From the NCBI GenBank assembly GCA_964478715.1, contig CAYZIY010000013.1, positions 1 through 46,894 on the forward strand: 46,894 nt of DNA. Reading direction: 5' to 3'. The translations under genes were made by a program, and so were the position numbers. The notes below the pieces were generated by a model. It was not told the DNA's origin. It did not search any database and was given only the letters and a program-made list of their open reading frames with translations. This document shows, in pieces, positions 3,185 to 44,388 of this stretch. The DNA comes from an uncultured Planctomycetales bacterium (GTDB lineage Bacteria > Omnitrophota > Gorgyraeia > Zapsychrales > JBDRMG01). Position 1 is the first letter of the stretch, and every line of letters starts with the position of its first letter.

Positions 3185-3623
3185 TAAAGAATACACATTA
3201 GACATCTCTGATCACGAAACACTGCTTGAGGTTTTAAGAGACCACCTTGGTCTAACAGGCACCAAAGCCGGATGCCAGGAGGGGGAATGTGGAGCCTGCA
3301 CGGTTATTGTCGAGGGGAAATCAATTCTCTCCTGCCTGACGCTTGCAAAAGAAGTTGAAGGGAAAACAATTACCACCATTGAAGGTCTCGCTCAAGGGGA
3401 AAAGCTTCATCCGATTCAGGAGGCATTTTTAAATAAAGGAGCTGTCCAATGCGGATTTTGCTCACCCGGTATGATCATGGCCACGAAATCATTGCTGGAT
3501 CAAAATCCCAATCCAAGCCGAGAAGAGATCGAACGGGCCCTGGATGGAAATTTGTGCCGCTGTACAGGCTATCTTAAAATCATGGAAGCGGTTGAAGAAG
3601 CGGCCGATCAATTGAAATCATGA
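3165..3623 (+). CDS. Xanthine/CO dehydrogenase-family [2Fe-2S] (small) subunit
   Basis: GCQEGECGAC...C and QCGFC...CRC cluster motifs. Confidence 0.95.
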   Translation: MTYNINNKEYTLDISDHETLLEVLRDHLGLTGTKAGCQEGECGACTVIVEGKSILSCLTLAKEVEGKTITTIEGLAQGEKLHPIQEAFLNKGAVQCGFCSPGMIMATKSLLDQNPNPSREEIERALDGNLCRCTGYLKIMEAVEEAADQLKS

Positions 3624-5923
3624 CTCAAAAAAAGAAATTAATCAATCCGGTCGGAAAACCCGTTCCCCGTATCGACGGGCGAGGGTTAGTTACCGGAGAA
3701 GCAAAATATACCTTTGACCTGAAGGTTCCGGGAATGCTTATCGGAAAGATGATTCGCTCTCCTCATGCTCATGCCCGGATCATTCGCATAGATACATCGA
3801 AAGCCGAAAAAATTCCTGGGGTCAAAGCGATTATCACGGCTCGAGATACTTATGAGATCAAGTTTGGCTCCAATGAGTATTTCTTCCCTCAAACCGTCGA
3901 TCAGATGGCTCTGGAAGCGGAAAAAGTTCGCTATATAGGTGATGAAATCGGCGCGGTGGCCGCCATTGACGAAGAAACAGCCCAAAAGGCCATTGCCTTA
4001 ATTGATATCCAGTATGAAAAACTGCCCGCTGTTTTTGATCCAGACGAGGCCATGAAACCAACGGCCCCTCAAATTCACAAGGCCCGCAATAATATCAGTG
4101 TTATGCTGCCGGCCAACTTCGGCAATGTCCAGCGCGCTTTAAGGGAATCCGATTATGTCCGCGAAGATGTTTTTACCCTTCAGTCGGCAGCTCATTGCTG
4201 TATGGAACCGCATGTCAGCGTTGGGCAGTTTGAAACCTTTTCAGAGAAAATCACGCTCTGGACATCAACCCAGGCTCCTTTTAAGGTGCGCGAGGCCATG
4301 GCCAAGTGCCTTAAGATGGAACTCAATGATATTCGTGTCATTAAATTGGCCGTGGGCGGCGGTTTTGGCGGAAAACTTGAAATGCTTCCCATGGATTTTG
4401 CGGCTGTTTTGCTATCAAAAAAATGCGGTGGTTTTCCGGTCAAAATATCATTAAATCGCAGCGAAGAGTTTAATTTCACCCGCCGGAAACACCCCATGAA
4501 ATACAAACTAAAAAGCGGGGTCAAAAAAGACGGAACACTAATGGCCATTTCCGGTGAAATCATCGCTGACGGCGGGGCCTATTGCAGTTACGGACCTACC
4601 GTCATGGCCGCGGCTATGATGCGGACTTTTATGGTTTACAAGATCAAGAATTTTCGTATTACCGGATACCGTGTCTATACCAACAATCCTATAAGCGGAG
4701 CAATCCGCGGCTTTGGGGGCGTCCAATCCGGATTTGCTATTGAATCTCATATGGACTTACTGGCCCGTGGTATTGGCATGGATCCGCTTGAATTTCGCCT
4801 AAAAAATATCACCGAACCGAATATGGTGACCGCCAATAAGATGATCATCTCAAGTAACGGCCTGAAAGAATGTATTGAACAAGCCGCAAAAAAGGCTCAA
4901 TGGAAGAAAAAATACAATCAGCAGAATAAGATCGCCCGCGGTATCGGCATTGGCATCGCGGCGGATGTGATGGGATCCAAAATGTATAAGTCGCATGAAT
5001 CGGCCGGTTCCATCGTGAAAGTGGAGGAGGATGGTTCGGTCTATTTATTTACCGGTGCGGCCGATACCGGGCAAGGATCAAATACCGCTTTGTCTCAAAT
5101 CGCCGCTCACGAGCTGGGAGTCAGTTTTGAGCGCATTCGCTGCAAGGCCGCCGACACTGAAATCACGCCTTTTGATACCGGAAGTTTTGCCTCGCGCGTT
5201 ACCTTTATTTCCGGAAACGCAACAAAACTGGCCGCCCGGGATGCCAAAAATCAAATTCTGGATATCATCGCGCAAGAAAAAAAATGCGCGCGTGAAGATC
5301 TTGATATTATCGCCGAAGAAGTTATTCAGCGAAGCGATCAAAAGCCTCTCATGAATTTTGATGAGGCCCTTGAGATATGTTATTCATTTAATTATGGAAG
5401 GCAGATTATCGGCCGCGGATCTTATAATCCAAAAACAACACCCGTTGACTTTCGTACCGGCGAGGGAAATGTCTCGGCCAGTTACAGCTATGAGGCGCAA
5501 ATCGCCGAAGTGGAAGTCAACAAAGAAACAGGGGAGGTAAAGGTCCTTAAAATGTGGGATGCCCATGATGTCGGCAAGGCTATTAATCCCCAGAGTGTCG
5601 AGGGTCAGATTGAAGGATCCATCGTCATGGGAATCGGTTACACTTTTTACGAGGATTTACAATTTAAAAACGGACGTCTGTTGAATCCAAATTTCTCTCA
5701 TTATCGGATTCCCCGAAGCGTTTCAACTCCCCCCATCGAAACAATCATTATTGAAACCCAAGACGAGCAGGGTCCGTTTGGAGCCAAAGGCATGGGAGAG
5801 GCCTCGCTTTTGCCGACTTCCGCTGCCATTGCCAATGCGATTGAAGATGCTGTCGGTGTTCGGATCAAAGATCTACCGATCACGCCGGAGAAAATATTGA
5901 AAGCTCTTAATGAAAAACAATAG
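3620..5923 (+). CDS. Xanthine-dehydrogenase-family molybdopterin-binding (large) subunit, substrate unknown
   Basis: RSPHAHA, GGGFGGK, GAIRGFG, GQG, VEGQIEG and GAKGMGE motifs. Confidence 0.93.
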   Translation: MTQKKKLINPVGKPVPRIDGRGLVTGEAKYTFDLKVPGMLIGKMIRSPHAHARIIRIDTSKAEKIPGVKAIITARDTYEIKFGSNEYFFPQTVDQMALEAEKVRYIGDEIGAVAAIDEETAQKAIALIDIQYEKLPAVFDPDEAMKPTAPQIHKARNNISVMLPANFGNVQRALRESDYVREDVFTLQSAAHCCMEPHVSVGQFETFSEKITLWTSTQAPFKVREAMAKCLKMELNDIRVIKLAVGGGFGGKLEMLPMDFAAVLLSKKCGGFPVKISLNRSEEFNFTRRKHPMKYKLKSGVKKDGTLMAISGEIIADGGAYCSYGPTVMAAAMMRTFMVYKIKNFRITGYRVYTNNPISGAIRGFGGVQSGFAIESHMDLLARGIGMDPLEFRLKNITEPNMVTANKMIISSNGLKECIEQAAKKAQWKKKYNQQNKIARGIGIGIAADVMGSKMYKSHESAGSIVKVEEDGSVYLFTGAADTGQGSNTALSQIAAHELGVSFERIRCKAADTEITPFDTGSFASRVTFISGNATKLAARDAKNQILDIIAQEKKCAREDLDIIAEEVIQRSDQKPLMNFDEALEICYSFNYGRQIIGRGSYNPKTTPVDFRTGEGNVSASYSYEAQIAEVEVNKETGEVKVLKMWDAHDVGKAINPQSVEGQIEGSIVMGIGYTFYEDLQFKNGRLLNPNFSHYRIPRSVSTPPIETIIIETQDEQGPFGAKGMGEASLLPTSAAIANAIEDAVGVRIKDLPITPEKILKALNEKQ

Positions 5924-12077: not shown

Positions 12078-14153
12078 TTATTGAAGCAGATTTTTTATGT
12101 TTTCTAACTGCCTCTGGGCGGCTTCGCGTCCTTTCTGGATAATCCGGTCCACCTGGTAAAGTTCAAGCCAGTTGACCTCCGTTAAATCCGGATGAATCAA
12201 GACATCAGCCGCTTTGGCACTTTCTTCAGCCAAGGTATATTCGCTGGCCTGAAAACTGCGAACAAGAATACTGGAGATATTCGGTGAAAACACTCTTAGA
12301 GCCAGTCTCCGCAATCGAATACCCAGATAACTGATCGGAGCCGAAAGAAATCGTCTTTCTAAAGCTTTTTGCTCATCCGCACAAAACTTCTCATAAATAG
12401 TCTGAAAATCACCGGGGGATTGCAACACATTGACAGCAATAATCTTTTTGATGCCCAAAGCGCTTAAGAAATTCGTCGGTAGAGGATTGATGATACCGCC
12501 ATCAATAAAAAGCCTCTCTTTTGCCGTAATCGGTTTGATAATACCCGGAATCGCTATCGATTTCTGGATTGCCTCCACCATCGTCCCTTCATCTATTGCG
12601 ATGTCCTCCATTTTGGTTAAATCGAAAGCCACTGCCTTAAACGGAATTTGGGTATCGTAAAATGTTTTTTCGCCTATTTTACTTTTTAACCAACGATTGA
12701 TCCCCCGGCCAGCCATCAGGCCCGCTTTCGAGAAAATGGGATCAATTAATTTGAGGCATTTTTGCCAAGTTGAGAATTCCTTAGCTGCTTTCTCGATCTG
12801 CCTGGCCTTCATTCCTGAAGCCCACAGGCCCCCAATCACAGCTCCAATGCTGCTGCCGATGATCACATCAATAGGAATATCATTATCCTCCAAAACCTCT
12901 AAGACTCCGATATGAGATAGTCCCAAAGCAGCTCCGCTTCCTAAAGCCAAGCCGACCAAAACCCCTCCGGTCTCTCTGGCAATCTTGCGTACGGTTTTTG
13001 CATAAGGGCTCTGTTGTTCGGCTCTAAGAAATAAAAAGTTATCCGACTCGATTTTTCTCAGATGGCTCTTAGCCTCAATTCGAGGAAGAACACACTCCAT
13101 TTCAAAACCAAGCAAGTGATTGATGCGATTATGAGACATTAAGACTGCTTCTGTGTTGGGTTGCACAAATACCTTAATCTTTTCATGAAGGAAATTCGTT
13201 TTCCAGGATTCCCTCAAATCGCTAATGATATCTTTCGTCTTTTTAAGTTCTTTCTCGCTGTGGCCTGTAATGAGATGTACATAATCGGACTGGATTAAAG
13301 ATTCCCTGACGATTTCATCCATCGCATTGGGGAGGTCCACAATCACAAAATGATAATCATTGGCCAGCAAACTCACCAACTCGCTGATACGTCCTGAGAG
13401 GCTCCCTTCGGCAGCCTTAAATGTCAATGATAATGTATGCACCTTATCGAGTGAGGAATCACTTTTTTGCCGAAACTCATGAAAACGATTGAGAAAGTCC
13501 GTCATCATCGAAGGCTCAGCGCGCCATTGGATTCCCAGTAATTGATCGGCTCTTTGAGACTGCCGATATTGATCCTGAGCGATATTGACCAGAACAACTC
13601 TTCGTCCTGTTTCTTCTTTCAGGCTCCATGCTAAATGAGCTGCATAGGTTGAAGAACCAGACCCAGAAACAGACCCATAGGCCGAGAGAATCGTGCTCTC
13701 AAAAATAGTTTTCTGTTCTTTCTCTCTGCGATTAACCCGGCGGGATAGATTATGACTTAAGTCAATGCCCAGGGAAGGAATTTGGTTGATCAGTCTTTGG
13801 AAATGGTCCTGTTCAATACGCAAAACAACAGAATCATTCAAAACATCCATCGTCAAAGAATGATTTTCTCCTGTTAAAAGAGAGATAATGCCAAAATACT
13901 GACCCCGATAAAGCTGCTCGCTAACTGCGTGCTCTGAATCGTCCGGATAGTTAAAAGCCCTGATTCGGCCCGATATCAAGCAATAAAAGGCATCTGGCGG
14001 ATCCCCGGCTCGATAAATAATCTCACCCAGCCGATAATGCACAATTTCGCACTCAATAGCAACTTTATGGAGATCAAACCAGCTGAGCTTGCTGAATAAT
14101 GGAATTTGCTTAATCAGAGAGATCTTATTAACAACCTGGCTCAGGATATTCAT
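12078..14153 (-). CDS. Patatin-like phospholipase with an N-terminal cNMP-binding domain and a central ParA/MinD-like domain
   Basis: cNMP fold (IYRAGDPPDAFYCLISG, GQYFG); GSGAALG, GSSIG and DGG patatin motifs; DYHFVIVDLP. Confidence 0.88.
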   Translation of the reverse strand: MNILSQVVNKISLIKQIPLFSKLSWFDLHKVAIECEIVHYRLGEIIYRAGDPPDAFYCLISGRIRAFNYPDDSEHAVSEQLYRGQYFGIISLLTGENHSLTMDVLNDSVVLRIEQDHFQRLINQIPSLGIDLSHNLSRRVNRREKEQKTIFESTILSAYGSVSGSGSSTYAAHLAWSLKEETGRRVVLVNIAQDQYRQSQRADQLLGIQWRAEPSMMTDFLNRFHEFRQKSDSSLDKVHTLSLTFKAAEGSLSGRISELVSLLANDYHFVIVDLPNAMDEIVRESLIQSDYVHLITGHSEKELKKTKDIISDLRESWKTNFLHEKIKVFVQPNTEAVLMSHNRINHLLGFEMECVLPRIEAKSHLRKIESDNFLFLRAEQQSPYAKTVRKIARETGGVLVGLALGSGAALGLSHIGVLEVLEDNDIPIDVIIGSSIGAVIGGLWASGMKARQIEKAAKEFSTWQKCLKLIDPIFSKAGLMAGRGINRWLKSKIGEKTFYDTQIPFKAVAFDLTKMEDIAIDEGTMVEAIQKSIAIPGIIKPITAKERLFIDGGIINPLPTNFLSALGIKKIIAVNVLQSPGDFQTIYEKFCADEQKALERRFLSAPISYLGIRLRRLALRVFSPNISSILVRSFQASEYTLAEESAKAADVLIHPDLTEVNWLELYQVDRIIQKGREAAQRQLENIKNLLQ

Positions 14154-23696: not shown

Positions 23697-24461
23697 ATGA
23701 AAATGCATTTCCCACATTGTACTTTTGCTAGATTTGTCCTGATTTCAATTACGACCTCTCTTTTCATCCTACGGGTCGCTGGTTTCTGTTTCTCTCAAGT
23801 ATCTTTTATCGAAACAGCTCAGAAAGTTTCGCAATCTCTTGTCACAATCGAAGCTCACGTTAGAGGACTTGTTCAATCACAACAAGCCGCTGCCGGCATT
23901 GATCCCCAAACGGGTCGACTTATCATCGCTAGAAATGCAAAGGCGATCTCTCATAACCGCACAGGAGCCGGAATAATCTTAGATCGAAATGGAATTCTTG
24001 TTACTAATGCCCATATCGTTAGAGGGGCAAATAGCATCAAAATAATCCTTAATGACGGTCAAGAGGAATCAGCATCCATAAAGAAGATTATTCCTGGAGA
24101 AGATTTAGCTTTTTTAAAGATAGATTCTCCCGGCCAGCTCAAACCCATTACTTTTGCGGATTCCGATCAGATTCATCTGCGCGATGAAATCTTTACGATT
24201 GGCCATTCGCCTCTTTTGAACAATACCATCTCAGGTGGAAAGATTATCGGCCTGGGGGTGCGCAGCCATAATTCAGCCATTGAGCTTTTTCAAATAAATA
24301 TGAATTTGTATAAAGGAGACAGCGGCGGGCCCCTGCTCGACCGTCAAGGACGGTTGATTGGGTTAATGGTTGCCGGTCAAATGCAGACGGATCAATCATC
24401 TTTCGCCATACCTGCCAATAAAATAAAGAAGGAATATCACAAAATTGTTAACGAACGCTAA
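23697..24461 (+). CDS. Trypsin-like (HtrA/S1C) serine protease without a PDZ domain
   Basis: VTNAHIV, DLAFLKI and GDSGGPL catalytic triad motifs; N-terminal hydrophobic segment. Confidence 0.9.
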   Translation: MKMHFPHCTFARFVLISITTSLFILRVAGFCFSQVSFIETAQKVSQSLVTIEAHVRGLVQSQQAAAGIDPQTGRLIIARNAKAISHNRTGAGIILDRNGILVTNAHIVRGANSIKIILNDGQEESASIKKIIPGEDLAFLKIDSPGQLKPITFADSDQIHLRDEIFTIGHSPLLNNTISGGKIIGLGVRSHNSAIELFQINMNLYKGDSGGPLLDRQGRLIGLMVAGQMQTDQSSFAIPANKIKKEYHKIVNER

Positions 24462-27012
24462 GAAACTCTATTCTTTTTTTTATTCTAAAAAAGCAAAGAA
24501 AACTTTGGCAGTTTTAGGCTTTTTGAGCATTTACTTATTCTGCCTCTTGTTACGTCTCTACCCTCTCTTCTCTTTCTCGGACTCCGACTCCTATGAAAAA
24601 GCCACTCTCTTAACAATCGCCCAATTAAAATCCCAGTCATTGGCCCAAGCCAGACAACAATTCGCTGAAGAATCCGGTGCGGATATAAAGCGACAGGCAA
24701 AAAAGATATTTGATCAACGATTGAAAGACGACAGCAATCGAGTGAAAGAAATTATTGATCAAAGAGCCCGCAAAATATTTCTTTCTAAAGGAGTTCGCCC
24801 CCGCCCCTATCTTTTGGCAGCCGATTCCTACAATTATTATGGATTGACAAAGAACCTTATTGAAACCGGAAATCTTAGCGAGACGATAAAGGGAAGTAAA
24901 TTCTTAAATAAAAAGATGCTAGCTCCTTTAGGTCACATGGAGCCCTTGAATGCCCACCCCTATCTAGGAGCCTATTTATTCCAAATGGTCAGATTTTTTT
25001 CACCAAAAGCTGATCTGATGTTTACGCTCTGCTTTATACCAGTAATTCTGACGATTCTTGGCTTCTGTGCTTTATTTTTCTGTGCTCGGTGTTACAATAT
25101 CAGGATACCTTTTATTATTATTTCCAGCTTCTTCCTATTTTTAGCACCCATTATCTTACGTCGAACCTCTTTCGGCTGGTATGATAATGATCCTTACAAT
25201 ATTATCTTTCCTTTTCTGATCCTGGGTCTCTATGCCAAAACTTTTTCTTCTCAAAGAAAATCCTTCCTATGGGCATTTGTTCTGTGTCTTTGCTTTAGTC
25301 TTTACTCTCTTTTCTGGCATGGATGGGGTTTGATTTTTGGGATCATCATCTTAAGCGGACTGATTCATCTGATTACTGAAATCCTGCTTCGCTCAGATCG
25401 CTCTTGCATCAAAAAGAACGGTCAATCCTTTGGTATTATTTTTTTGGGAACCTTTCTGGGTATTGGTCTTTTATTTGGATTCACGGAATTCTTTGTTCTT
25501 CTCGAAGAAGGATTAAGGGCTCTTAAGGACTTTCTGAATCCCGAACTGTCTTTGTGGCCTAATGTTTATTTCAATGTCGGCGAGCTTCATAGAATGCCTT
25601 TGGATCAATTAATCAGCCACTGTGGAGGATACCTGTTTTTCTTGATTGGCCTTTTTGCAGTTTTTGCTTGGCTCTATCAGTCGCTTATCGCAAAAAACAA
25701 TAAAGAACAACGGCTTCTCGTTCCGGCATTTATCCTTTATATCGTTCTCTTCGCTCTATCTTTAAAAGCGCAACGATTCAGTCTTTTGTTTGTGGTCCCG
25801 GCAGGAATCTTTTTTGCTTTAGGCCTGAATTTGATATGGAATTTTCTTATGAATCTTAAAAAGAATAAACCTTCAAAAAGAAAAATAGGATATTTTGGCC
25901 TTTGGGGAGTTTCCTGCCTTATCTTGATTGCATCAGCCATTCAAAGCGGAATGAAGGCTTATGCTACAATCTTTAACTGGCGCCCTATTGTCAATCAGAC
26001 CTGGGAAGAAGCCTTGCTAAAAATTAAAAACGATACCCCAGACAATAGTATAATTAATACTTGGTGGCCGCCGGGACATTTCATCACCTCTATGGCAGAT
26101 CGTCGAGTGACTTTTGATGGAGCCACAATTAATGTTCCACAGGCCTACTGGTTGAGCTGTTTTTTCTTAAATCAAGATGAAAAAGAAGCTCTGGGTATAT
26201 TAAGAATGTTAAATAATAGTGCCAATCAGGCCTCAGAACTACTGATGAACTCTGGCATTCCGATCGAGCGGGCCGTCAAACATCTTAAGGCCATTGTGCC
26301 TTTAAACAAAAAACAAGCAAGCCAATATTTACACAAACTTCCTTTAACCGGCAAACATATTCGACAACTCCTTGATTTAACTCACAAAAAGCCTCCCCCT
26401 TCCTATATTTTTCTCTACAAAGATCTCATTGAGAAAAATCTCGAATTAAGTTTTATTGCCCATTGGGATTTCAGAAAAGTTAGAGAAATCAATCAAGATC
26501 GCAATGCGCTAGAAGAGATTCCGCGTTCTGATCCAAAAAAATTTGTCCGCTACATCTGGAATAAATTGCTCACAGAAGCTCCCTTGAAATACTCAGAAAC
26601 TCTTGGGCAAATTCTCCGTGAAAGCAACAAAATCTACTTTCAGCAGGGAATCATGGTGGACTTAGGGCGGATGAGCGCGCGCATCAATTCCGAGAAATTT
26701 GGTCAAGGAATTCCTCAAATGTTAATTTTTCAAAAAGACGGCCAGCTGATTGAAAAACCGCTTGAAAACAGCAATCTCCCCGCAGCTATTGTTCTTTTAA
26801 AAAATGCTGCCGGTTATGAGTGCATACTAATGGACATCGCTCTAGCCCGTTCTCTTCTCATGAAACTGTATTATTTTCAAGGAGCCCACTGCAAATATTT
26901 GCGTCTTTTCAGTCATCATTCCAATCCAACGAAAAGAACCAAGATATTGATCTACGAAGTTTTATGGGATAAGTTTTTGGAGGACACTGCTAACAAGGTC
27001 ACTTCTTTTTAA
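24445..27012 (+). CDS. STT3/PglB/AglB-like oligosaccharyltransferase
   Basis: ADSYNY, GWYDND, VGEL and WWPPG...ADRRVTFDG motifs; about 13 TM helices plus a soluble C-terminal domain; start uncertain. Confidence 0.82.
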   Translation: MLTNAKKLYSFFYSKKAKKTLAVLGFLSIYLFCLLLRLYPLFSFSDSDSYEKATLLTIAQLKSQSLAQARQQFAEESGADIKRQAKKIFDQRLKDDSNRVKEIIDQRARKIFLSKGVRPRPYLLAADSYNYYGLTKNLIETGNLSETIKGSKFLNKKMLAPLGHMEPLNAHPYLGAYLFQMVRFFSPKADLMFTLCFIPVILTILGFCALFFCARCYNIRIPFIIISSFFLFLAPIILRRTSFGWYDNDPYNIIFPFLILGLYAKTFSSQRKSFLWAFVLCLCFSLYSLFWHGWGLIFGIIILSGLIHLITEILLRSDRSCIKKNGQSFGIIFLGTFLGIGLLFGFTEFFVLLEEGLRALKDFLNPELSLWPNVYFNVGELHRMPLDQLISHCGGYLFFLIGLFAVFAWLYQSLIAKNNKEQRLLVPAFILYIVLFALSLKAQRFSLLFVVPAGIFFALGLNLIWNFLMNLKKNKPSKRKIGYFGLWGVSCLILIASAIQSGMKAYATIFNWRPIVNQTWEEALLKIKNDTPDNSIINTWWPPGHFITSMADRRVTFDGATINVPQAYWLSCFFLNQDEKEALGILRMLNNSANQASELLMNSGIPIERAVKHLKAIVPLNKKQASQYLHKLPLTGKHIRQLLDLTHKKPPPSYIFLYKDLIEKNLELSFIAHWDFRKVREINQDRNALEEIPRSDPKKFVRYIWNKLLTEAPLKYSETLGQILRESNKIYFQQGIMVDLGRMSARINSEKFGQGIPQMLIFQKDGQLIEKPLENSNLPAAIVLLKNAAGYECILMDIALARSLLMKLYYFQGAHCKYLRLFSHHSNPTKRTKILIYEVLWDKFLEDTANKVTSF

Positions 27013-33907: not shown

Positions 33908-35119
33908 CTATCGTCCGGCCAGCAAATCCATTTGAAAAATCGGCAACAACATGGCCATGACCATGAAACCAACAATCAAGCCGATCGTCAAAATAAGAAC
34001 GGGCTCCAAAAGCGCGGTAAGCGTCTTCAGTGATTCCTCGATATCCTGCTCATAAGTTAAAGCAATATCGGCAAGTGTTTCCTCCAGCGATCCAGACTCC
34101 TCGCCAACGATAATCATATGGCTAATGAGAATCGGAACCACGGAAATATTTTTCAGACTTTCCCCAAACGAAGAGCCGGATTCGAGATTCTCCATACCTT
34201 TACGTATGTTTGCTCTAATCACATTGTTATGAATAGTAGCGGAAGCTATCGATATCGCTTTCAATAAAGGCGCACCGCTTCTAAGAAGAAGTTCGAGAGT
34301 CTTAGAGAACCGGGATATTTCTGTCTTTTTGATTAATTGTCCGAAAAGCGGGACAGTAAGCAAAAACCGATGGAACAATAATCTTCCGGAATTTGTCTTG
34401 GCCCATTTGATCAAAAAGAGGACAGCAAAGAAGATCCCTAAACTGATGACAATCCAATAATCGCGTATTCCTTGACTGAGAGTAATCATGATACGGGTTG
34501 CCAAAGGAAGCTGTTGATCTATCTGTGAGAAAAGCGGCATCACCCGTGGCATTACATTAGTTAAAATAAATATTACTGTAGCAATTCCCACAAAAAGCAT
34601 CAAAAGAGGATAAGCTAAAGCGACGCGCACTTTTGAGTAAATCTCGTCCTGGGATTTGAGATGGGCAGATATCCTCTGAATCATCTCGGATAATTGCCCT
34701 CCCTCCTCACCGGCCTGAACCATAGCAATGTAAAGCGTTGAAAAGACTCGGGGATATTGACTGAGACAATCGGAAAGATTATAACCATCTTTGATCTTAG
34801 CGCTAACATCAGCCAATATTCTCTTCAAATCATTATTTTGAGTTTGTTGCGATAAAAGATGAAAGGCTTTTAAGATGGGGACACCGGTCTTAAGAAGATT
34901 GGCCAGCTGGCGACTCATCAGATAAGTTTCTTTCAAAGACACTCTCTCTGACCTAAAAATCCTTCGAGATCTTGTTTTGAACTGCTCCTCCTGTACCGAT
35001 AAAGGCGTTAGCCCCATATGATTAATAATATCAATTGCCTCTTCTTTGTTTTGAGCTTCCAAGCGACCTTCTTTGATTTCTGTTGAACCTTTTTTAGCTT
35101 TGTATAAAAAAGACGGCAT
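33908..35119 (-). CDS. gspF: Type II secretion inner-membrane platform protein GspF/PilC
   Basis: RQLANLLKTGVPI, AGEEGGQL, ALAYP, GEESGSL and LLEP motifs. Confidence 0.95.
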   Translation of the reverse strand: MPSFLYKAKKGSTEIKEGRLEAQNKEEAIDIINHMGLTPLSVQEEQFKTRSRRIFRSERVSLKETYLMSRQLANLLKTGVPILKAFHLLSQQTQNNDLKRILADVSAKIKDGYNLSDCLSQYPRVFSTLYIAMVQAGEEGGQLSEMIQRISAHLKSQDEIYSKVRVALAYPLLMLFVGIATVIFILTNVMPRVMPLFSQIDQQLPLATRIMITLSQGIRDYWIVISLGIFFAVLFLIKWAKTNSGRLLFHRFLLTVPLFGQLIKKTEISRFSKTLELLLRSGAPLLKAISIASATIHNNVIRANIRKGMENLESGSSFGESLKNISVVPILISHMIIVGEESGSLEETLADIALTYEQDIEESLKTLTALLEPVLILTIGLIVGFMVMAMLLPIFQMDLLAGR

Positions 35120-35124
35120 ATTGT

Positions 35125-37350
35125 TTATCCTCGAGTATCTTTTTTCGAATTAACAAAATTTTCTATCTTTACCCGATCCGCGCTTGAAATATCTAAATAA
35201 TAAACCGCGATATTGAGTGTATCACTCAGCTCATCTTCTTCTACGCGACAAATTTTTGCCAGACAGCCGATGCCATCTTTCTTTTCATCCAGCTGTATCC
35301 GTAAATCAACAATTGAGTCCACTTCAATCGAATGACTAGATGAAAAAAGGAGACCACCGGCACTGATGTTTTTGGTGATTGATGAATGCTCGTAATTATC
35401 TCCTTTATACGTCGTCGTTTCAACATCGCTCTCTTGGGGTTGAAATATTTTATAACGGATTTTGACCTTCTCGTTGATCCGCGGATAAATTCGTTTCTCG
35501 TGATCCAATTTAGCCGATTGCATCACGTTCCTTCTTATTGTACGGAATTGATAAACTGTTTTATTATCAAGGCGATTTTCCTTTTTTGCCTTATTTTCAA
35601 CCTGGTCATCTGGCGGAATCCCCTCGGTGGGATATTGTTCTTTACTGGTTACATTGATCACCTCGGCCGGTGTCGTCAGCCCCTGAATAACCTTCCGCCA
35701 GCCGTCTTGCCGCAAAGTCTTCATGCCGCTTTTTATGGCAATCTTTTTGATATATTCTATGCGAGGCCTTTCTAAAATAGCCGAGCGAATTTCTTCATTC
35801 ATCACCATCATCTCGTGAATGGCTGTCCGTCCAAAATAACCGGTTTGGTTGCATTGATCGCAACCTTTTCCGTGATAAAATTTTATACTATTATCGTCAA
35901 TTTTAAGAGCCTCAGCTATTTCGTCTTTTATCTCTAAAAAAGGTGCTATCGTTTCTTCTTTACAGTGGGGGCAAATCATACGCACCAAACGTTGAGCAAC
36001 AAAAGCCTCAACGCTAGAGGCGACCAGATAGGGCTCAAGCCCCATATCGATCAAACGGGTAATCCCGCTGGTGGCATCATTGGTGTGCAATGTCGAAAAA
36101 ACTAAATGTCCCGTTAAGGCGGTACGAATCGCGATTTCGGCGGTCTCCAAATCACGCACCTCGCCGACCATAATAATATCAGGATCATGCCGTAGAATAC
36201 TTCTTAAACCACGCGCAAAATTGAGATCTACTTTAGGATTCACCTGAATTTGAGTAATCCCTTCCATCTCATACTCTACCGGATCTTCAATGGTGATGAT
36301 TTTACGCTCGAGCGTATTGATCTCATTGAGGCAAGCATAAAGAGTCGTTGTCTTTCCGCTGCCAGTAGGGCCTGTCAAAAAAACAATCCCATGAGGCTTG
36401 GCGATAATGTTTCTGAATTCCTGAACATTCTCCTTATTGAGCCCCAGTTTTTGTAAACTAAAAAGTCTTACTTTGGTCGGCAAGATACGAATCACCATAC
36501 TTTCCCCTGAAGGCGTAGGGATAGTTGAAACTCTCAAATCCAAATTCTGCTCCTTGGTTTTGACCACAGCACTTCCGTCTTGCGGCACACGTTTCTCGAC
36601 AATACTCAAACCCGCCATTATTTTGATCCTTGAGAGAATAGGAAAAATGAAATGTCGGATTTGGACGGGTAAATTCGCGTCCATGAGGACTCCGTCGATC
36701 CGATAACGGAAGCGAACTTTATCACGGTAAGGTTCGATATGAATATCGGTGGCTCTTTTTTTATACGCTTCCAAGATAATCTGGTTAACCAGATTAATGA
36801 TGGAAGCATCTTCGCTTGCCTTCTCCAAATCTTCAATGCTCTGCCTTTGATTGGCCTCAGCGATTTTAACACGTTCGGGATCCTTGCTGAGAATGCGGTC
36901 CACCGTATCGGCTGCCAGACCGTAATACTTCTTAAAGACATCGAGAATTTGAGATTCCTTGGCCAAAACCAATTTGGGTTGCAAACCTAAGTAGACTCGA
37001 ATTTCATCTTGCATCTTAATATCTAAAGGAACAGCCGTCGCAATCTTTATTTCCTTTCCCTCTATTGCCAGCGGCATAAATTTATAATACCAAGCAAATT
37101 TTACGGGAATCTTCTTTATGACTTTTTGATCGATAATGAATTTGTTCAAATCGACTATTTCTAAGTTTAATTTCCGTGAGAGAACCTTAATGATCTCGTT
37201 TTCACTGACAAATCCCTGACGGACAAGATAGCTGGTTAGGGTTTCTCTGGCGCTTTGAGCTTTGGCTTGAGCCCGAGCGATATCTTCCATCGAGATAAGT
37301 TTATTTTCAATAAGAATATTGGCTAATGTTTTTTCAGATGAATTGGTCAT
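35125..37350 (-). CDS. gspE: GspE/PilB assembly ATPase with a C-terminal PilZ domain
   Basis: GPTGSGKT, TIEDPVE, LRHDPDIIMVGE, STLHTN, CPHC/CDQC; C-terminal KRIYPR and NISAGG. Confidence 0.95.
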   Translation of the reverse strand: MTNSSEKTLANILIENKLISMEDIARAQAKAQSARETLTSYLVRQGFVSENEIIKVLSRKLNLEIVDLNKFIIDQKVIKKIPVKFAWYYKFMPLAIEGKEIKIATAVPLDIKMQDEIRVYLGLQPKLVLAKESQILDVFKKYYGLAADTVDRILSKDPERVKIAEANQRQSIEDLEKASEDASIINLVNQIILEAYKKRATDIHIEPYRDKVRFRYRIDGVLMDANLPVQIRHFIFPILSRIKIMAGLSIVEKRVPQDGSAVVKTKEQNLDLRVSTIPTPSGESMVIRILPTKVRLFSLQKLGLNKENVQEFRNIIAKPHGIVFLTGPTGSGKTTTLYACLNEINTLERKIITIEDPVEYEMEGITQIQVNPKVDLNFARGLRSILRHDPDIIMVGEVRDLETAEIAIRTALTGHLVFSTLHTNDATSGITRLIDMGLEPYLVASSVEAFVAQRLVRMICPHCKEETIAPFLEIKDEIAEALKIDDNSIKFYHGKGCDQCNQTGYFGRTAIHEMMVMNEEIRSAILERPRIEYIKKIAIKSGMKTLRQDGWRKVIQGLTTPAEVINVTSKEQYPTEGIPPDDQVENKAKKENRLDNKTVYQFRTIRRNVMQSAKLDHEKRIYPRINEKVKIRYKIFQPQESDVETTTYKGDNYEHSSITKNISAGGLLFSSSHSIEVDSIVDLRIQLDEKKDGIGCLAKICRVEEDELSDTLNIAVYYLDISSADRVKIENFVNSKKDTRG

Positions 37351-37365
37351 AATGAAGATGAAAAA

Positions 37366-39742
<2,377 letters not shown>

Positions 39743-39757
39743 ATTCGAATAATGAAA

Positions 39758-40501
39758 TTATGCGCCTTCAATCTTATCTTTCTTTCTAGTGGAGGCCTCG
39801 ATGATCAGATTTTTGATGCTCCCGTCCAGAGCTAAACTGCCGAATTTTAACATGATTCCGGCGACCATTTGCTTATCCGTTGTAGCGCTAACTGTAATTG
39901 ATCTACCCAGCTTTTTTTCAATAATATCGAAAATCCTTTGATTGATCGATTCGTCAAGAGATCCTGCGGTCACAATCTCAACGGTTTTAACATCTGAAGA
40001 AATTTGTTTCATATCCACATTTTCCAGATCCTTGATAAATTCCTCCCATAATCTTTCCTCCAAAATACCGCGCGCTTCTTCGCTTAATATCTCGCATAAG
40101 ATTTCGGAGGCAAAGGTAACCGTCTTAATCTCAATCTCTTTTTCAATATCTTTGCGGATTTGATCCTTGGTTCTTTGGGCTTTGTCGATAATCTCCTCAC
40201 CCTCGTTCCGGGCCTTTTGAATCATCTGCGCACGTTCTTCTTTAGCTTTTTCATTAGCCTCATCGATCATCTTTTTGGCTAACTCTTCCGCTTCTTTGCG
40301 GCGCTTCTCCAGCTCTTCATTGGCTTCTTTAATTTTGCGATCCAGTTCGGCCTGTTTGGCACGCGCTTCTTCAGTCTCCTTATTCAAACGTTGAACCGCT
40401 CCTTCGGTACTTGAAAAAAAGACTTGCTTCATGACAAAAATAATCACTCCAAAAACAACTGTCTGTAAAACAAAAATTTTGATAAGAAGCATCCAGTTCA
40501 T
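39758..40501 (-). CDS. Fo subunit b fused to the delta/OSCP C-terminal domain
   Basis: N-terminal TM helix, long charged coiled coil, then VEIVTAGSL...MVAGIMLKFGSLALDGSIK. Confidence 0.85.
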   Translation of the reverse strand: MNWMLLIKIFVLQTVVFGVIIFVMKQVFFSSTEGAVQRLNKETEEARAKQAELDRKIKEANEELEKRRKEAEELAKKMIDEANEKAKEERAQMIQKARNEGEEIIDKAQRTKDQIRKDIEKEIEIKTVTFASEILCEILSEEARGILEERLWEEFIKDLENVDMKQISSDVKTVEIVTAGSLDESINQRIFDIIEKKLGRSITVSATTDKQMVAGIMLKFGSLALDGSIKNLIIEASTRKKDKIEGA

Positions 40502-40532
40502 CGTATCCCTTTCTGATTTTTTCTTTCATTCA

Positions 40533-40775
40533 TTATTCGGCATACGTCTCAAGCATATGATAAAAAATAAGCAAAAGACCAAAGCTGATCACTTCGACAA
40601 AAACTAATTTGAGAAAAATCCCAGTTTGAATGGCCGGAGTCTTGCTCGGATAATAAGATAATTTCTTTAGCATCTTGTATCCTAAAATAGCCGCCGCTGT
40701 GCAGGGAATTGCAATCATGATAAAGATAATCGTGATCAGGGTCAGTCCGGTTTGTAGAGTTTCGCTTTGCTCCAT
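40533..40775 (-). CDS. Second, divergent c-subunit-like hairpin protein
   Basis: Aligns without gaps to the neighbouring c subunit (P..A.LGY..K.L...PS...I..G...L.FVE.IS). Confidence 0.7.
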   Translation of the reverse strand: MEQSETLQTGLTLITIIFIMIAIPCTAAAILGYKMLKKLSYYPSKTPAIQTGIFLKLVFVEVISFGLLLIFYHMLETYAE

Positions 40776-40781
40776 TTGAGT

Positions 40782-41003
40782 CTACCTTCCAAAAAGCTGA
40801 AAGATAATGAGAATGGCAACGATGGAAATCGCCTCAACGAAAATCAAAAGAACAATCATTCCCATAAAAATCTTGGACGCGGCCGAAGGATTCCTTCCCA
40901 AGGCTTTTATAACCGAATAGCCCAAAACCGCAATGACCATCGATGGCCCCATAACGGCAATAAACATGATCGCAATAATAATAAAGGTTTCGGCTAATCT
41001 CAT
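40782..41003 (-). CDS. atpE: Fo subunit c (divergent)
   Basis: 73-aa two-TM hairpin, GRNP loop, conserved Glu in FVEAI. Confidence 0.88.
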   Translation of the reverse strand: MRLAETFIIIAIMFIAVMGPSMVIAVLGYSVIKALGRNPSAASKIFMGMIVLLIFVEAISIVAILIIFQLFGR

Positions 41004-41009
41004 AATTTG

Positions 41010-41342
41010 CTAAACTTCCCCTTGCTCATCATCTTCTTTACCAAAAACCATATCTTCTTCTTTCCCCTCTTTTTCTTTCTTTTCTCTTTCTTCCTGCTCG
41101 ATCAGAACGATACAATCATTGGCAAAAAATCTTAAGATACCGACCTTGACAGGAACAGCATGCCGCCAGTTAATAATAATCTTGCTGTTCAACTGCAAAA
41201 TACCGATCACCGGATAGTGATAGGGCAAAATCTCATATTCTCCCTCATCGCCGGTAATAAACAAAGAATGAACCTCGTTTTCATAAACAAGACTGTCGGG
41301 CGTCATAATAGTGCATTTGAATGTTCCTTTATAGCGCGCCAT
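41010..41342 (-). CDS. atpC: F1 epsilon subunit (beta-sandwich domain only, with an acidic tail)
   Basis: IMTPDSLVYENEV, GDEGEYEILPYHYPVIGIL motifs. Confidence 0.85.
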   Translation of the reverse strand: MARYKGTFKCTIMTPDSLVYENEVHSLFITGDEGEYEILPYHYPVIGILQLNSKIIINWRHAVPVKVGILRFFANDCIVLIEQEEREKKEKEGKEEDMVFGKEDDEQGEV

Positions 41343-41353
41343 TGTTACAGACC

Positions 41354-42904
41354 TCAGGTCTTGACATCCTCTTTCTTACTCGTGGCTTGATCAAGAGCAT
41401 CCTGCCCCACCATATCATCTTCTGATTCATCCTCTTCTTCTTTGGGCCGCTTGGCCTGAACATCTTTGAGATACTGAGTGCAAAGATCTTCCATCTCCTT
41501 GGCAATATCATCGTCCAATTTTTTCTTCTCTCTCAAATTTTTAATTAATTCAGGATTTTTCTGATTGGCAAAATCAAGAATCTCCAGCTGAAATTTCTTA
41601 ACTTCGTCTCCGCTCATCTCCAGAAGAATCTTTTTGTTGTAGGCAAAAAGAGTCAAGGCAAGAACATCCAAAGAAACCGGAGAATCTTTATCCTGACGAA
41701 TGATTTCAGTTAGAATCTCACCGATTTTCATTTGCTGCTGCTGGCCTTCGCTTTGTCCGGATGTTTTCAGTCGGGAGACTCGAAGAAGCTCGCGGTATTG
41801 GATATAGTCCAGTCGCAAAGAGCCCGATAACTTTTTGACGATAGGCCACTGCACCTTGCTTCCCACGCGTGAAACCGAAAGGCCCAAGTCTACAGCCGGT
41901 TTTTGCCCTTCACCGAAAAGGGGAGTGCTTAAATAGATTTGCCCATCGGTCATGGAAACAAGATTCGAAGGAATGTATCCGGTTAAATCCCCCTCTAAAA
42001 GCTCAACGATCGGGAAAAACGTGATGGAGCCACCCCCGCGCTCTTTATCCATAAAAGCCGCACGCTCAATCATTTTCGAGTGCAGATAAAAAATGTCTCC
42101 CGGATACGAGTCGCGACCCGGAGGACGCGCCAGCAATAGGGAAATCTCCCTGTAACACCAGGCATGCTTGGTGAAATCGTCAAAGCCGATAAAGACATGT
42201 TTTCCCTGGTTCATCAAATGCTCAGCAATGGAACAGGAAACGTAGGGAGCCAGATACTGCTGTCCAGGAGGAGCAGAAGCGGGTGCCGAAACAATCATCG
42301 AATATTCAAAACAACCGTTATCCTGAAAAAGCTGAACAACCTTGGCTAAAGCGCTTCGGGCTTTCCCGATACAGCAATAGATGCAGTAAACATCCGTGTT
42401 TTTTTGATTCAGAATCGTATCGGTCACAATGGTAGTTTTTCCGGTCATCTTATCACCAAGAATCAACTCGCGCTGACCGAGCCCGACGGGAATCATGGTA
42501 TCCAAAACCTTAATGCCCGTTTCCAGAGTTTTGCATAAGGGCTCGCGTGCCAAGATGGGAGGAGCATCAATAAAAACCGGAGCCATTTTGTCCCATTCCA
42601 AACGACCCAAACCATCCAAGGTCTCGCCTAAAGGATTGATGATGCGTCCGATAAGTTTATTACCCACAGGAACATAAAAAGGTTCCAGCGATGCAACCGC
42701 CTTATCGCCTGTTTTAATATTCTCGGTTTCTTTAACAATAAGAACCTGGGCTTCCTTTTCATCAAATCCAATGATCTGCCCTAAAGTTCCGTATCCAAAT
42801 TTAATCAACTGGCCGCTTAAACAATGCTTGAATCCCGTCACAATGACAATACAACCCCGGATACAGCGAACACGCCCAATTTCTGTATATCGTAAATCAC
42901 CCAT
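41354..42904 (-). CDS. atpA: Divergent F1-type ATPase alpha subunit
   Basis: GQRELILGDKMTGKT, RPPGRDSYPGDIFYLHS, TDGQIYL and SVSRVG motifs; SD GGAGG. Confidence 0.95.
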   Translation of the reverse strand: MGDLRYTEIGRVRCIRGCIVIVTGFKHCLSGQLIKFGYGTLGQIIGFDEKEAQVLIVKETENIKTGDKAVASLEPFYVPVGNKLIGRIINPLGETLDGLGRLEWDKMAPVFIDAPPILAREPLCKTLETGIKVLDTMIPVGLGQRELILGDKMTGKTTIVTDTILNQKNTDVYCIYCCIGKARSALAKVVQLFQDNGCFEYSMIVSAPASAPPGQQYLAPYVSCSIAEHLMNQGKHVFIGFDDFTKHAWCYREISLLLARPPGRDSYPGDIFYLHSKMIERAAFMDKERGGGSITFFPIVELLEGDLTGYIPSNLVSMTDGQIYLSTPLFGEGQKPAVDLGLSVSRVGSKVQWPIVKKLSGSLRLDYIQYRELLRVSRLKTSGQSEGQQQQMKIGEILTEIIRQDKDSPVSLDVLALTLFAYNKKILLEMSGDEVKKFQLEILDFANQKNPELIKNLREKKKLDDDIAKEMEDLCTQYLKDVQAKRPKEEEDESEDDMVGQDALDQATSKKEDVKT

Positions 42905-42924
42905 TTTGAAAAACCTCCAAGGTC

Positions 42925-42933
42925 ATTATATCA
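42925..42933 (-). promoter_or_regulatory. Possible extended -10 promoter ahead of atpA
   Basis: TGA-TATAAT in the 92-bp gap; no good -35 box. Confidence 0.4.
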
Positions 42934-42996
42934 AAACCAAATTTCAGAAATACGATAAAAATGACCATTTTGATGAAGCAATCATTTTTTGTATTT

Positions 42997-44388
42997 CTAA
43001 GACTCTTCCTTCCCCTCGCCTTCGGGATTTTCGGCCGGTTTGATTTCTTCTATGGTTCCCCCTGTACTTATGGCTATCTCCTCCCCCATAACGCGGGCTT
43101 TTTTCCACCATGTGAAAAAGTGAACAATCGTAATAACAGCTACAAAAATAAGAATGCCCCAGATAATACGCCAAGTATGTGTTAAGGTCGGCTTCTTACC
43201 GAATATTGCTTCGGAAAGAGAGGCGATACCGCGTAAAGCCTTTAATTTTTGCAGAATATTTTTTACTTTGCTTTTTTCCAACTCTTCTAACTTCTTAGCC
43301 TTGACGCGAGCGAGCATTAGCTCGATCTTCTCAATCTCCAGACTAATCTCTTCAAATCGATGCCGATTAATGCGAAAGGCGCCGATATATTTTCGCATAT
43401 TAGCTTTAGTTTCCTGCGATTCTCTAATAGCATTGAGTAGGCTAAAAATTTTATTCCCGATAAACTGAGCTCCCGCTTCGTATTCGGAACCCTTGATTTC
43501 TTCGAGAGCGCGTTCAGTTCGCTCAGCCATCGAATCGACCTTGTCAAGAGAAATGCTCCAAATATCTTTCATCCGAATGGTATATTTTCTCGTCTCACCA
43601 GGTTGAAATTCTTCTTCCTTAAGAAGATAGGATTGCTGTCGATCTTCATCCCATCGAACATCAAAACCCTGGCTATCCAAAATATGCTCAGACCGTATTT
43701 CTTTTGGAAGGTAATGTTTCTGCGTGATCATTCTGGTCTCTTTTTGAGAAGGATTTTTAACTTCAATAATAAAATTCACAGATTCCTGTGTCACCTCCCT
43801 GATACGCTCGGAGGTAAAGTATTCAAAAGAAAAAGCATTTTTCCGAATTTGATCGATATCAGCCAAATAAGCCCGGTATTCTTCAATCCGACGATTGATA
43901 TCCTCAGAATAACCCTGCTGCTGACTCAAAACATAATCAAGTTTGTTCATCATCTTCTCGCCAATCATTTGGGCGGACTCAAAATACTCGGTACCTTCCA
44001 GCTGTCGGATATTCTCTTCAATCTGTCCCCTGATAATATCAATTTCCTCCTGAGGAATTCTCCAGACATCGCGCACTTCCACTTTGATCTTTTTGGATTC
44101 TTTGGGCTTTAAGGTAACGGTCCCTTTGAGAAAATATCGCGACTGGTCGATATCGTAATCCAGCGAAAGAGGCCCGGCATTGACAATATCTTTCGGATCC
44201 AATTCTCGGGGAAGATAATATTTCACAGATGTTTCTTTTTCTTGGGTCTCGCTGGGATTAACCGCCACAAAATTAATAAAGATATTCTGGGCATAACATT
44301 TCGATGAAGAAATAGCAAATAATACATACAGTGCTATTGATAAAAAAATGGATTTCTTGATAAAATGAAATAAAATTCCTTGATTCAT
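42997..44388 (-). CDS. Exported protein with a C-terminal membrane anchor, built of two ~170-aa repeats
   Basis: Signal peptide; NPS..YLP.E...D(V/I)W.I...G(T/S)EY..AQ.IG.K occurs twice; TM helix TWRIIWGILIFVAVITIVHFFTWW. Confidence 0.8.
   Translation of the reverse strand: MNQGILFHFIKKSIFLSIALYVLFAISSSKCYAQNIFINFVAVNPSETQEKETSVKYYLPRELDPKDIVNAGPLSLDYDIDQSRYFLKGTVTLKPKESKKIKVEVRDVWRIPQEEIDIIRGQIEENIRQLEGTEYFESAQMIGEKMMNKLDYVLSQQQGYSEDINRRIEEYRAYLADIDQIRKNAFSFEYFTSERIREVTQESVNFIIEVKNPSQKETRMITQKHYLPKEIRSEHILDSQGFDVRWDEDRQQSYLLKEEEFQPGETRKYTIRMKDIWSISLDKVDSMAERTERALEEIKGSEYEAGAQFIGNKIFSLLNAIRESQETKANMRKYIGAFRINRHRFEEISLEIEKIELMLARVKAKKLEELEKSKVKNILQKLKALRGIASLSEAIFGKKPTLTHTWRIIWGILIFVAVITIVHFFTWWKKARVMGEEIAISTGGTIEEIKPAENPEGEGKEES

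Follow-up and report, generated by a model that had tools for sequence, protein, structure and literature searches.

Subunit a of F-type ATPases supplies the half-channels and the essential arginine (Arg) that couple rotation to ion flow. What, then, does a c ring do when this known route of ion translocation is missing? The question is raised by a gene cluster on contig CAYZIY010000013.1 of assembly GCA_964478715.1, a genome of the phylum Omnitrophota (order Zapsychrales). The cluster encodes an F-type ATPase in which the rotor parts (gamma, epsilon and c1, the first of two c subunits) and a membrane-anchored b-delta stalk are retained and strongly conserved, and in which subunit a is missing. 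It is strictly associated, at the level of the genome, with a machine resembling a type II secretion system (T2SS), with a giant repeat protein exported by the Sec pathway and with a membrane-anchored protein of 463 amino acids (aa), which we call p463. The complex is probably an ATP-driven mechanical motor and not an ATP synthase. We lean, if only slightly, towards a second, non-bioenergetic F-type ATPase that would act as an ATP-driven rotor without classical ion coupling and deliver torque to an envelope machine.

Gene organisation of the ATPase cluster

The window analysed here is the whole contig (46,894 bases), with its 3' boundary inside the repeat gene; the genome amounts to 2.10 Mb in 43 contigs and is 94.59% complete. 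All genomes compared in this study are metagenome assemblies, which are incomplete and mutually related. Listing the open reading frames (ORFs) and searching them against Pfam revealed a single tight array on the minus strand, from position 27009 to past 46893. Transcription runs from the giant repeat gene through p463, alpha, epsilon, c1, c2, b-delta, gamma, beta, GspE and GspF to pseudopilin and PilMNO-like genes. In this order, the array contains:

44422..>46893, minus strand: giant repeat protein, 3' part (823 aa), made up of a 13-residue 'GINW' repeat and, after it, a non-repeat C-terminal region; truncated by the contig end
42997-44388, minus strand: p463 (463 aa), membrane-anchored periplasmic protein of no known family, with a signal peptide and a C-terminal transmembrane (TM) helix
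41354-42904, minus strand: F1 alpha-like subunit, 516 aa (Pfam; TIGR00962 499 bits, cut-off 484)
41010-41342, minus strand: epsilon, 110 aa, an N-terminal beta-sandwich with a charged tail (PF02823 37.9 bits, cut-off 27; TIGR01216 below cut-off)
40782-41003, minus strand: c1, 73 aa, hairpin of the c-subunit type that contains Glu57 and an RNP loop (PF00137 29.9 bits, cut-off 24)
40533-40775, minus strand: c2, 80 aa, a diverged c paralogue (hhalign against c1; no Pfam or NCBIfam match)
39758-40501, minus strand: b-delta fusion, 247 aa (Pfam OSCP positions 95-163 of 172, and ATP-synt_B)
38891-39742, minus strand: gamma, 283 aa, divergent (PF00231 E-value 8.8e-33, 114.7 bits, cut-off 39.9)
37366-38865, minus strand: F1 beta-like catalytic subunit, 499 aa (TIGR01039 526 bits, cut-off 463)
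35125-37350, minus strand: GspE/PilB-type ATPase carrying MshEN at its N-terminus and PilZ at its C-terminus (both c-di-GMP-binding domains), Walker A motif kept
33908-35119, minus strand: GspF/PilC platform protein, three TM helices
27009-33975, minus strand: Peptidase_MA_2 protein, GspG, two further pseudopilins, GspK, PilM-PilN fusion, PilO-like protein and TPR protein

The seven ATPase genes fit in about 5.5 kb (37366-42904). Intergenic gaps between p463 and GspE measure at most 92 nt, with 15 nt separating beta from GspE, so an ORF of 200-280 aa cannot fit in the ATPase part. According to a hydropathy scan, the only membrane proteins of this part are c1 and c2 (two TM helices each), b-delta (one) and p463 (a signal peptide and one C-terminal helix), and GspF, with three TM segments, is the sole polytopic protein of the operon. 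These results agree with an earlier sequence-only reading of the cluster, which had noticed that atpB, the gene for subunit a, was missing and that two hairpins, b-delta and the 463-aa protein were the only membrane parts.

We then considered the rest of the genome, as that reading had proposed. The Pfam family of subunit a (PF00119) had no match across the whole 2.10 Mb; it did have matches in 9 of 14 control genomes. A profile hidden Markov model (HMM) was made from six atpB sequences of the order and applied, at full sensitivity, to 22,639 six-frame segments of this genome; its best E-value, 0.65, is at noise level. An atpB upstream of the repeat gene, beyond the end of the contig, would have undone the earlier claim, and was absent as well. 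A repeat-motif search placed the 5' part of the repeat gene at the edge of another contig of this genome, C24. Ahead of it are genes for an AAA_22 ATPase, a GspC-like protein, a 539-aa secretin, a TPR protein and two proteins with similarity to FGE-sulfatases, and no atpB is found on this contig. In a relative, G014, one contig of 1.34 Mb covers the entire locus from secretin through GspF. There the secretin and TPR genes come first and the two FGE-like genes next, and these are followed by the repeat gene (product of about 8087 aa), p463, the ATPase set, GspE and GspF. This locus also lacks atpB, and the single atpB of that genome sits 470 kb away.

The alpha/beta family has further members in this genome: contig C7 carries a V/A-type pair, and contig C9 a single homologue of 458 aa. 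The C7 operon (L062:3949-11046) is complete, with E, DUF2764, A, B, D, a 588-aa subunit I and a 153-aa proteolipid K, and is the only ATPase of this genome with an a-type subunit. Considering that an ordinary ion-translocating ATPase of another type is thus present, the F-type cluster is an extra one.

The partner machine has the components of a type II secretion or type IV filament system: GspE, GspF, pseudopilins and alignment proteins in the array, with the secretin and GspC-like protein on the adjoining contig C24. T2SSE, T2SSF, T2SSG, N_methyl, T2SSK, PilM_2 and PilN passed their Pfam cut-offs, and T2SSJ (20.8 bits, cut-off 28) and PilO (20.9 bits, cut-off 22) scored below theirs. As the NCBIfam equivalogs for GspE, PilB and GspF all scored under cut-off, the machine may belong to either the T2SS or the type IVa pilus (T4aP) subtype.

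Distribution in the order and the phylum

The comparison covered 61 genomes of the order, which spans 14 families, and a sample of 301 genomes of the phylum. The p463 marker was present in 45 of the 61 genomes. All 25 orthologous loci of the order share the gene order from repeat protein to GspF, with a widest intergenic gap of 354 nt. Five genomes hold seven variant clusters, arranged as giant protein, p463-like protein, epsilon, c, b-delta, alpha, gamma, beta, GspE and GspF, and four clusters from other Omnitrophota classes have related arrangements. The variant and other-class clusters alike are without subunit a, with a giant and a p463-like protein upstream and GspE(/F) downstream. Named homologues of c1 are all from Omnitrophota.

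There is some variation on this theme. The variant clusters are located at L054-L060 (G017, G027, G040, G044 and G055) and further ones at L075-L078 (G194, G184 and G125); some have a single c. The G044 variant cluster contains two alpha genes in tandem, and epsilon is not detectable in either of the two clusters of G194. Five genomes of the order carry two a-less clusters.

The 37 clusters are held by 39 sequence sources (610,653 bases), over which the atpB HMM found nothing (best E-value 2.8), so that subunit a was found in 0/37. The same HMM recovered 12/12 canonical operons of relatives with E-values of 1.4e-22 or lower. These operons have the textbook order a-c-b-delta-alpha-gamma-beta-epsilon. 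The canonical c subunits of the order fall into visibly different types, which hints that canonical operons have been exchanged or replaced among lineages.

The sequence-only reading had also suggested comparing the copy number of atpB with that of the cluster, which we did with gamma, tabulating the 61 genomes by hand. PF00231 scores split the gammas cleanly into canonical ones (E-value of 1e-65 or lower) and those of the cluster type (1e-19 to 1e-33), which adjoin p463 homologues. The genomes with atpB and those with a canonical gamma form one identical set of 42, and in 39 of these the two genes lie on one contig within about 4.5 kb. The 53 cluster gammas are spread over 48 genomes, and none of them (0/53) has an atpB nearby. 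Thus, atpB tracks the canonical gamma and never those of the cluster. Fourteen of the 48 cluster-bearing genomes, including the one studied here, lack atpB altogether. Where present in the order, atpB is a single strong copy, and the five genomes with two clusters hold at most one. In the phylum sample, gamma occurs in 245/301 genomes and atpB in 176/301, with more than one atpB copy in only 2/301. It follows that at least 69 genomes of the phylum have gamma but no atpB.

Conservation of F1 and remodelling of the stalk

We next looked at the subunits themselves. The Walker A Lys/Thr, the catalytic Glu-Arg and the Walker B Asp of beta are present in 26/26 orthologues, as are the Walker A Lys and the Arg finger of alpha. 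Both subunits exceed the cut-offs of their canonical NCBIfam models (TIGR00962 and TIGR01039). Gamma and epsilon are recognised by Pfam, with their NCBIfam equivalogs under cut-off, and a PF00119 subunit a encoded with the others is what the cluster lacks. Judged by these residues, F1 is catalytically intact.

In a tree of 88 alpha and beta sequences, the a-less forms grouped together and separately from the canonical ones, in the alpha and the beta half alike (support 0.83 and 0.915), which indicates a single origin of the a-less alpha and beta sequences relative to the sampled canonical genes. The a-less alpha is short by about 20 residues before the beta-barrel (median 9 against 30 in canonical forms). 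The beta of this cluster type has acquired about 40 extra residues at its N-terminus (median 43 against 5).

Mean pairwise identity within the cluster is highest for c1 (0.80), followed by beta (0.73), alpha (0.69), gamma (0.65), and epsilon and GspE (both 0.58). The remaining proteins are b-delta (0.46), GspF (0.44), p463 (0.41) and c2 (0.40). Six genomes have both enzymes, and here the rotor of the a-less form is roughly twice as conserved as that of the canonical form, at 0.79 versus 0.42 for c, 0.62 versus 0.31 for gamma and 0.53 versus 0.28 for epsilon, a contrast to be read with possible swaps of canonical operons in mind. For beta (0.74 versus 0.69) and alpha (0.70 versus 0.61) the difference is small.

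The stalk is remodelled. Instead of a separate b and a full-length delta, the cluster encodes one fusion, in which an N-terminal TM helix and a b-like coiled coil are followed by the delta C-terminal domain only. Alignments to proteins in the Protein Data Bank (PDB) include b, delta and mycobacterial b-delta, and the best NCBIfam model is alt_F1F0_F0_B (61.8 bits, under its cut-off of 224.7). In canonical F1Fo, the N-terminus of alpha binds the N-terminal domain of delta. Since the alpha N-terminal segment and the delta N-terminal domain are both gone, the two partners of this contact were apparently lost together.

Contig C24 contains an orphan ORF of 120 aa (L061:5815-6177) whose match to delta/OSCP covers the C-terminal domain only (E-value 3.1e-12), with a weak match to FliH. 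It is located about 10 kb upstream of the secretin gene, amid glycosyltransferase genes.

The c subunits and their glutamate

Glu57 of c1 aligns to the ion-binding Glu of solved c subunits, as expected of a canonical c subunit, and no other protein of the cluster is as conserved as c1. E57, R37, N38 and P39 are present in 26/26 orthologues. The cytoplasmic loop K33-F46, which includes R37-N38-P39, and the C-terminal periplasmic FQLF are invariant or nearly so. In canonical enzymes, this loop of c contacts gamma and epsilon.

The second c subunit is a more distant matter. It aligned to c1 in hhalign with a probability of 97.3% (E-value 2.2e-11) and with the Glu in register, while no match was found in Pfam or NCBIfam. 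Its Glu is present in 21/25 orthologues and lost in 4/25. Therefore, the claim of the sequence-only reading that the c subunits keep the ion-binding Glu holds for c1 and only partly for c2. Moreover, c2 is restricted to this cluster type, being absent from the seven variant and four other-class clusters, which rules it out as a universal replacement for subunit a.

Across all clusters, the c carboxylate is kept in 26/26 c1 orthologues, 7/7 variant clusters and 3/4 other-class clusters (36/37 in total). The exception is G125 (L078:9716-9967), whose only c subunit has a Thr (FGTA) where the others have FVEA or FAEA, as would be expected if ion binding were dispensable. One variant cluster has an extra c copy with Gly at the Glu position.

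No invariant Arg, Lys or other charged residue occurs inside the TM helices of p463, b-delta or c2, and the TM segments of GspF have none apart from a Glu that is typical of the family. As a consequence, no protein encoded in the cluster resembles a supplier of the essential Arg. A predicted-complex run of three c1 copies with c2, b-delta residues 1-70 and p463 residues 385-463 as partner scored 0.00 and carries no weight either way.

The p463 protein and the giant repeat protein

A structure model of p463 made with AF2 had a pLDDT of 81.5 (91.2 for the first module alone). It consists of two tandem modules, each a seven-stranded beta-sandwich with a three-helix bundle, followed by a long helix, the TM helix and a short, disordered, acidic cytoplasmic tail. 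No family in Pfam or NCBIfam matched p463, its profile found nothing below an E-value of 0.28 among PDB sequences, and Foldseek returned no match at E-value ≤0.001 for the model or for its first module. VIA-align gave generic helical-bundle matches only for the model and the module (best Z-scores 10.4 and 8.9), tied with unrelated and designed proteins. In the ESM Atlas, p463 was found in Omnitrophota clusters only, and the family comprises 964 representative clusters at E-value ≤1e-3.

Members of this family are also fused to the C-terminus of proteins of 1167-3065 aa (also at L060 and L078); fusions to the end of the giant protein occur in G017 and G125. Such fusions point to joint action of p463 and the giant protein, with p463 as an inner-membrane anchor or sensor, and do not suggest a channel. 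Judged by its homologues, p463 looks like an anchor or sensor module. We also considered the TM helix of p463 as a rotor shaft inside the c ring. This idea is weakened by a p463-like relative with a 160-aa cytoplasmic GGDEF domain after the TM helix. Wiring to c-di-GMP is visible at two points of these loci, in the MshEN and PilZ domains of GspE and in the GGDEF diguanylate cyclase domain at the end of one p463-like relative (L056:4595-6808).

The giant protein is built from a 13-residue repeat, GINW(x)D(I/L)DV(L/M)SD(T/A), which in the DNA has a period of 39 nt and a super-period of 78 nt. It has a Sec signal peptide, encoded in the 5' part on contig C24 (L061:16823-19588), and about 270 aa of non-repeat sequence at its C-terminus. 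The complete orthologue, in G014 (L053+L023), is the one of about 8087 aa mentioned above, and the contigs of many assemblies break within this gene. Pfam matches on the giant protein (Ntox33, Lysostaphin_N and Pox_A31) are driven by the repeat and mostly have no individually significant stretch.

Two paralogous proteins of 530-590 aa with an FGE-sulfatase domain are always encoded between the secretin/TPR genes and the giant gene (L061:13392-16788; in G014, L053:1127-4340). We considered a link of these proteins to the gliding proteins GldJ and GldK, and no NCBIfam match supports it.

A putative ATP-driven rotor

How could such a complex work? We propose that ATP hydrolysis would turn the gamma-epsilon-c ring against a membrane-anchored alpha3beta3/b-delta stator, and that rotation would proceed without the classical ion path of subunit a. 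The recipient of the torque might be the adjacent secretion or pseudopilus platform, or else p463 together with the giant protein. The purpose could be the export, anchoring or movement of the giant surface protein while the cells attach to host or prey cells. Mechanical transfer of torque to another partner was among the options named by the sequence-only reading and appears to be the most economical of them, but it does not explain why the c1 carboxylate is retained.

This is one of several points that weigh against a mechanical rotor. The Glu of c1 is kept in 36/37 clusters and c1 has the highest conservation of all, and a purely mechanical rotor needs no ion-binding Glu. Without subunit a, nothing known holds the TM helix of b-delta to the ring; the stator anchor is hypothetical. 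The contrast in rotor conservation between the a-less and the canonical enzyme is possibly inflated if canonical operons were swapped between lineages, in which case the canonical genes compared would not all be orthologous. Finally, rotation, a physical link to the T2SS-like parts and expression are predicted from metagenome assemblies; the sequencing runs listed for the source are three DNA runs of a single study, with no RNA run among them.

The kept Glu points to a partner or an ion function at the ring. A bolder version of the mechanical rotor, which we put forward tentatively, takes this into account. The ATP-driven c ring might be the membrane rotor of a T2SS-like machine for the protein of about 8000 aa, and the kept carboxylate and extreme conservation of c1 might reflect a non-homologous partner of the ring, either a new type of stator or a periplasmic coupler such as p463. 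If true, this would mean that the whole F1-c-ring rotor, and not F1 alone, was independently recruited to secretion or surface motility.

Of the alternatives, a ring that is still ion-coupled survives best, although on balance we find it unlikely. In this case a non-homologous stator would offer an ion path at Glu57 of c1, with ATP hydrolysis pumping ions or an ion gradient driving the rotor. Candidates for it are p463, c2, b-delta, the GspF/PilMNO platform and proteins encoded at other loci. This reading alone explains the conserved Glu (26/26 orthologues, 36/37 clusters) naturally, and it would fit with c1 being far more conserved than the canonical c of the same genomes, with the invariant C-terminal FQLF, which suggests a contact at the periplasmic end, and with the presence of p463-like proteins beside every cluster seen. 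However, none of the cluster-encoded TM helices has an invariant Arg or Lys, c2 does not occur in the variant or other-class clusters and has itself lost the Glu in 4/25 orthologues, and the G125 cluster has lost the Glu of its only c subunit. The p463 relatives with GGDEF domains or giant-protein fusions fit an anchor or sensor better than a channel. The sequence-only reading had named p463 or GspF as a possible non-homologous stator, and we found no positive support for either, considering the lack of invariant charged residues in their TM helices other than the family-typical Glu of GspF, and the anchor- or sensor-like character of p463.

It is distinctly improbable, in our estimation, that the ring does no work by rotation and that c and b-delta merely tether an F1-like ATPase, which would then activate or gate the platform through gamma in the manner of FliI/FliH/FliJ. 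FliH is homologous to b and delta. The loss of the delta N-terminal domain and the alpha N-terminal segment leaves a stalk of FliH-like architecture, and the cluster always lies directly upstream of GspE/GspF. Yet a tether needs neither epsilon, nor a near-invariant c loop of the kind that contacts gamma and epsilon, nor 80% identity over the c1 hairpin, and F1 has kept the residues of an alpha3beta3 hetero-hexamer.

That subunit a is borrowed from a canonical F1Fo or replaced by the V-type subunit I, or was missed through incompleteness or divergence, is barely credible: one atpB does lie elsewhere in 34/48 carriers of the order, and the genomes are metagenome assemblies (this one 94.59% complete, with a V-type subunit I present), but all other subunits are encoded in the operon, the sensitive order-specific HMM found nothing in this genome, atpB stays single-copy even beside two a-less clusters, gamma occurs without atpB in 14/48 carriers of the order and at least 69/301 genomes of the phylum, and the loss repeats in 37/37 clusters, whose spread over separate contigs and assemblies excludes an accident of assembly. 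The borrowed subunit a that the sequence-only reading had allowed for is rejected for the 14/48 carriers without a PF00119 match, this genome included, since these genomes have no atpB to lend. We know of no V-type subunit I that works together with an F-type c ring.

Returning to the a-less rotor, what stands out is the phylum-wide upkeep, by strong purifying selection, of alpha3beta3, gamma, epsilon, the c ring and an anchored stalk without subunit a, always in a secretion operon beside giant surface proteins. If true, either a mechanical ATP-driven membrane rotor or a new non-homologous stator would extend the short list of biological rotary machines. The cluster would also provide a molecular handle on the attachment to, or attack on, other cells by Omnitrophota, which are ultra-small and depend on hosts.

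Other genes on the contig

Elsewhere on the contig are an 855-aa homologue of STT3-like oligosaccharyltransferases (24445-27012, plus strand), a cNMP-binding patatin-like phospholipase (12078-14153, minus strand) and a three-gene set for a molybdoenzyme of the xanthine dehydrogenase family (2318-5923, plus strand).

Comparison with known systems

The locus type itself is known. Seymour et al. 2023 (PMC10066038) described genes for a non-respiratory, 'symbiotic' F-type ATPase beside type-4a pilus clusters in every Omnitrophota class, with ATPase and pilus genes no more than 10 kb apart in 57/66 contigs. In that study, the 'symbiotic' alpha was distinct from the respiratory one and grouped with Mycoplasma type 2/3 ATPases, and a role in attaching to host cells and moving on them was proposed. 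The cluster described here belongs to the same locus type, as it comes from Omnitrophota, its ATPase lies within 10 kb of pilus-like genes, and its alpha and beta fall outside the canonical clade. The passages of that study on the locus cover the alpha/beta phylogeny and the co-location and make no mention of subunit a, c, b-delta, p463 or a link to the giant gene, and the terms 'subunit a', 'stator' and 'proton' are absent from its main text; its supplements may hold more. West-Roberts et al. 2023 (bioRxiv 10.1101/2023.11.21.568195) reported T2SS-like loci beside giant genes of Omnitrophota, in passages that mention no ATP synthase, and here too the supplements may hold more. Among open-access papers and bioRxiv preprints, we found no description of an F-type cluster that keeps c and b-delta while lacking a, and none that joins the ATPase, giant gene, p463 and secretin as one locus. 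The apparently undescribed part is thus an a-less Fo that, as read from its genes, retains the c ring, carboxylate, epsilon and b-delta.

The Mycoplasma Type 2 and 3 clusters are alike in several respects. They are extra alpha/beta/gamma/epsilon-like clusters beside a genuine synthase, without subunit a, non-bioenergetic and linked to the surface, in host-dependent bacteria with reduced genomes. According to Beven et al. 2012 (PMC3369863), they lack homologues of b, delta and F0 and contain three family-specific proteins, one of them with about 12 TM helices. In contrast, the Omnitrophota cluster keeps c (with its Glu), b-delta and a recognisable epsilon, and has no 12-TM protein in the operon. 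The models of the Mycoplasma families (MMOB1660/1670 and MSC_0619/0618) fell short of their cut-offs, with 396/600 and 292/520 bits for alpha and 428/850 and 404/570 bits for beta, and also scored lower than the canonical models.

N-ATPase operons contain subunit a as well as AtpQ and AtpR. Like the present cluster, N-ATPase is a second F-type operon; N-ATPase has spread laterally, and its long b is the best NCBIfam match of b-delta. Still, the N-ATPase (alt_F1F0) models for alpha, beta, gamma and b scored under their cut-offs (478/750.5, 457/752, 21/282 and 62/225 bits, respectively), and the cluster has no further small ORFs with TM helices.

Canonical F1Fo shares with the cluster all F1 subunits, intact catalytic residues, a c subunit with a carboxylate and an RNP-type loop, and a homologous b/delta-type stalk. 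The cluster differs in having no a, a fused b-delta, truncated delta and alpha N-termini and a second, diverged c. Its gene order (alpha-epsilon-c1-c2-b-delta-gamma-beta) is also different and lies inside a secretion-system operon, and relatives hold a canonical operon elsewhere. The FliI-FliH-FliJ complex offers an analogy of use, as it is an F1-related ATPase with a b/delta-like stalk protein that serves an export machine without subunit a. Conversely, it is a homo-hexamer without c ring or epsilon, whereas the Omnitrophota cluster combines an alpha3beta3-type pair and a c ring with a type IV filament/T2SS partner.

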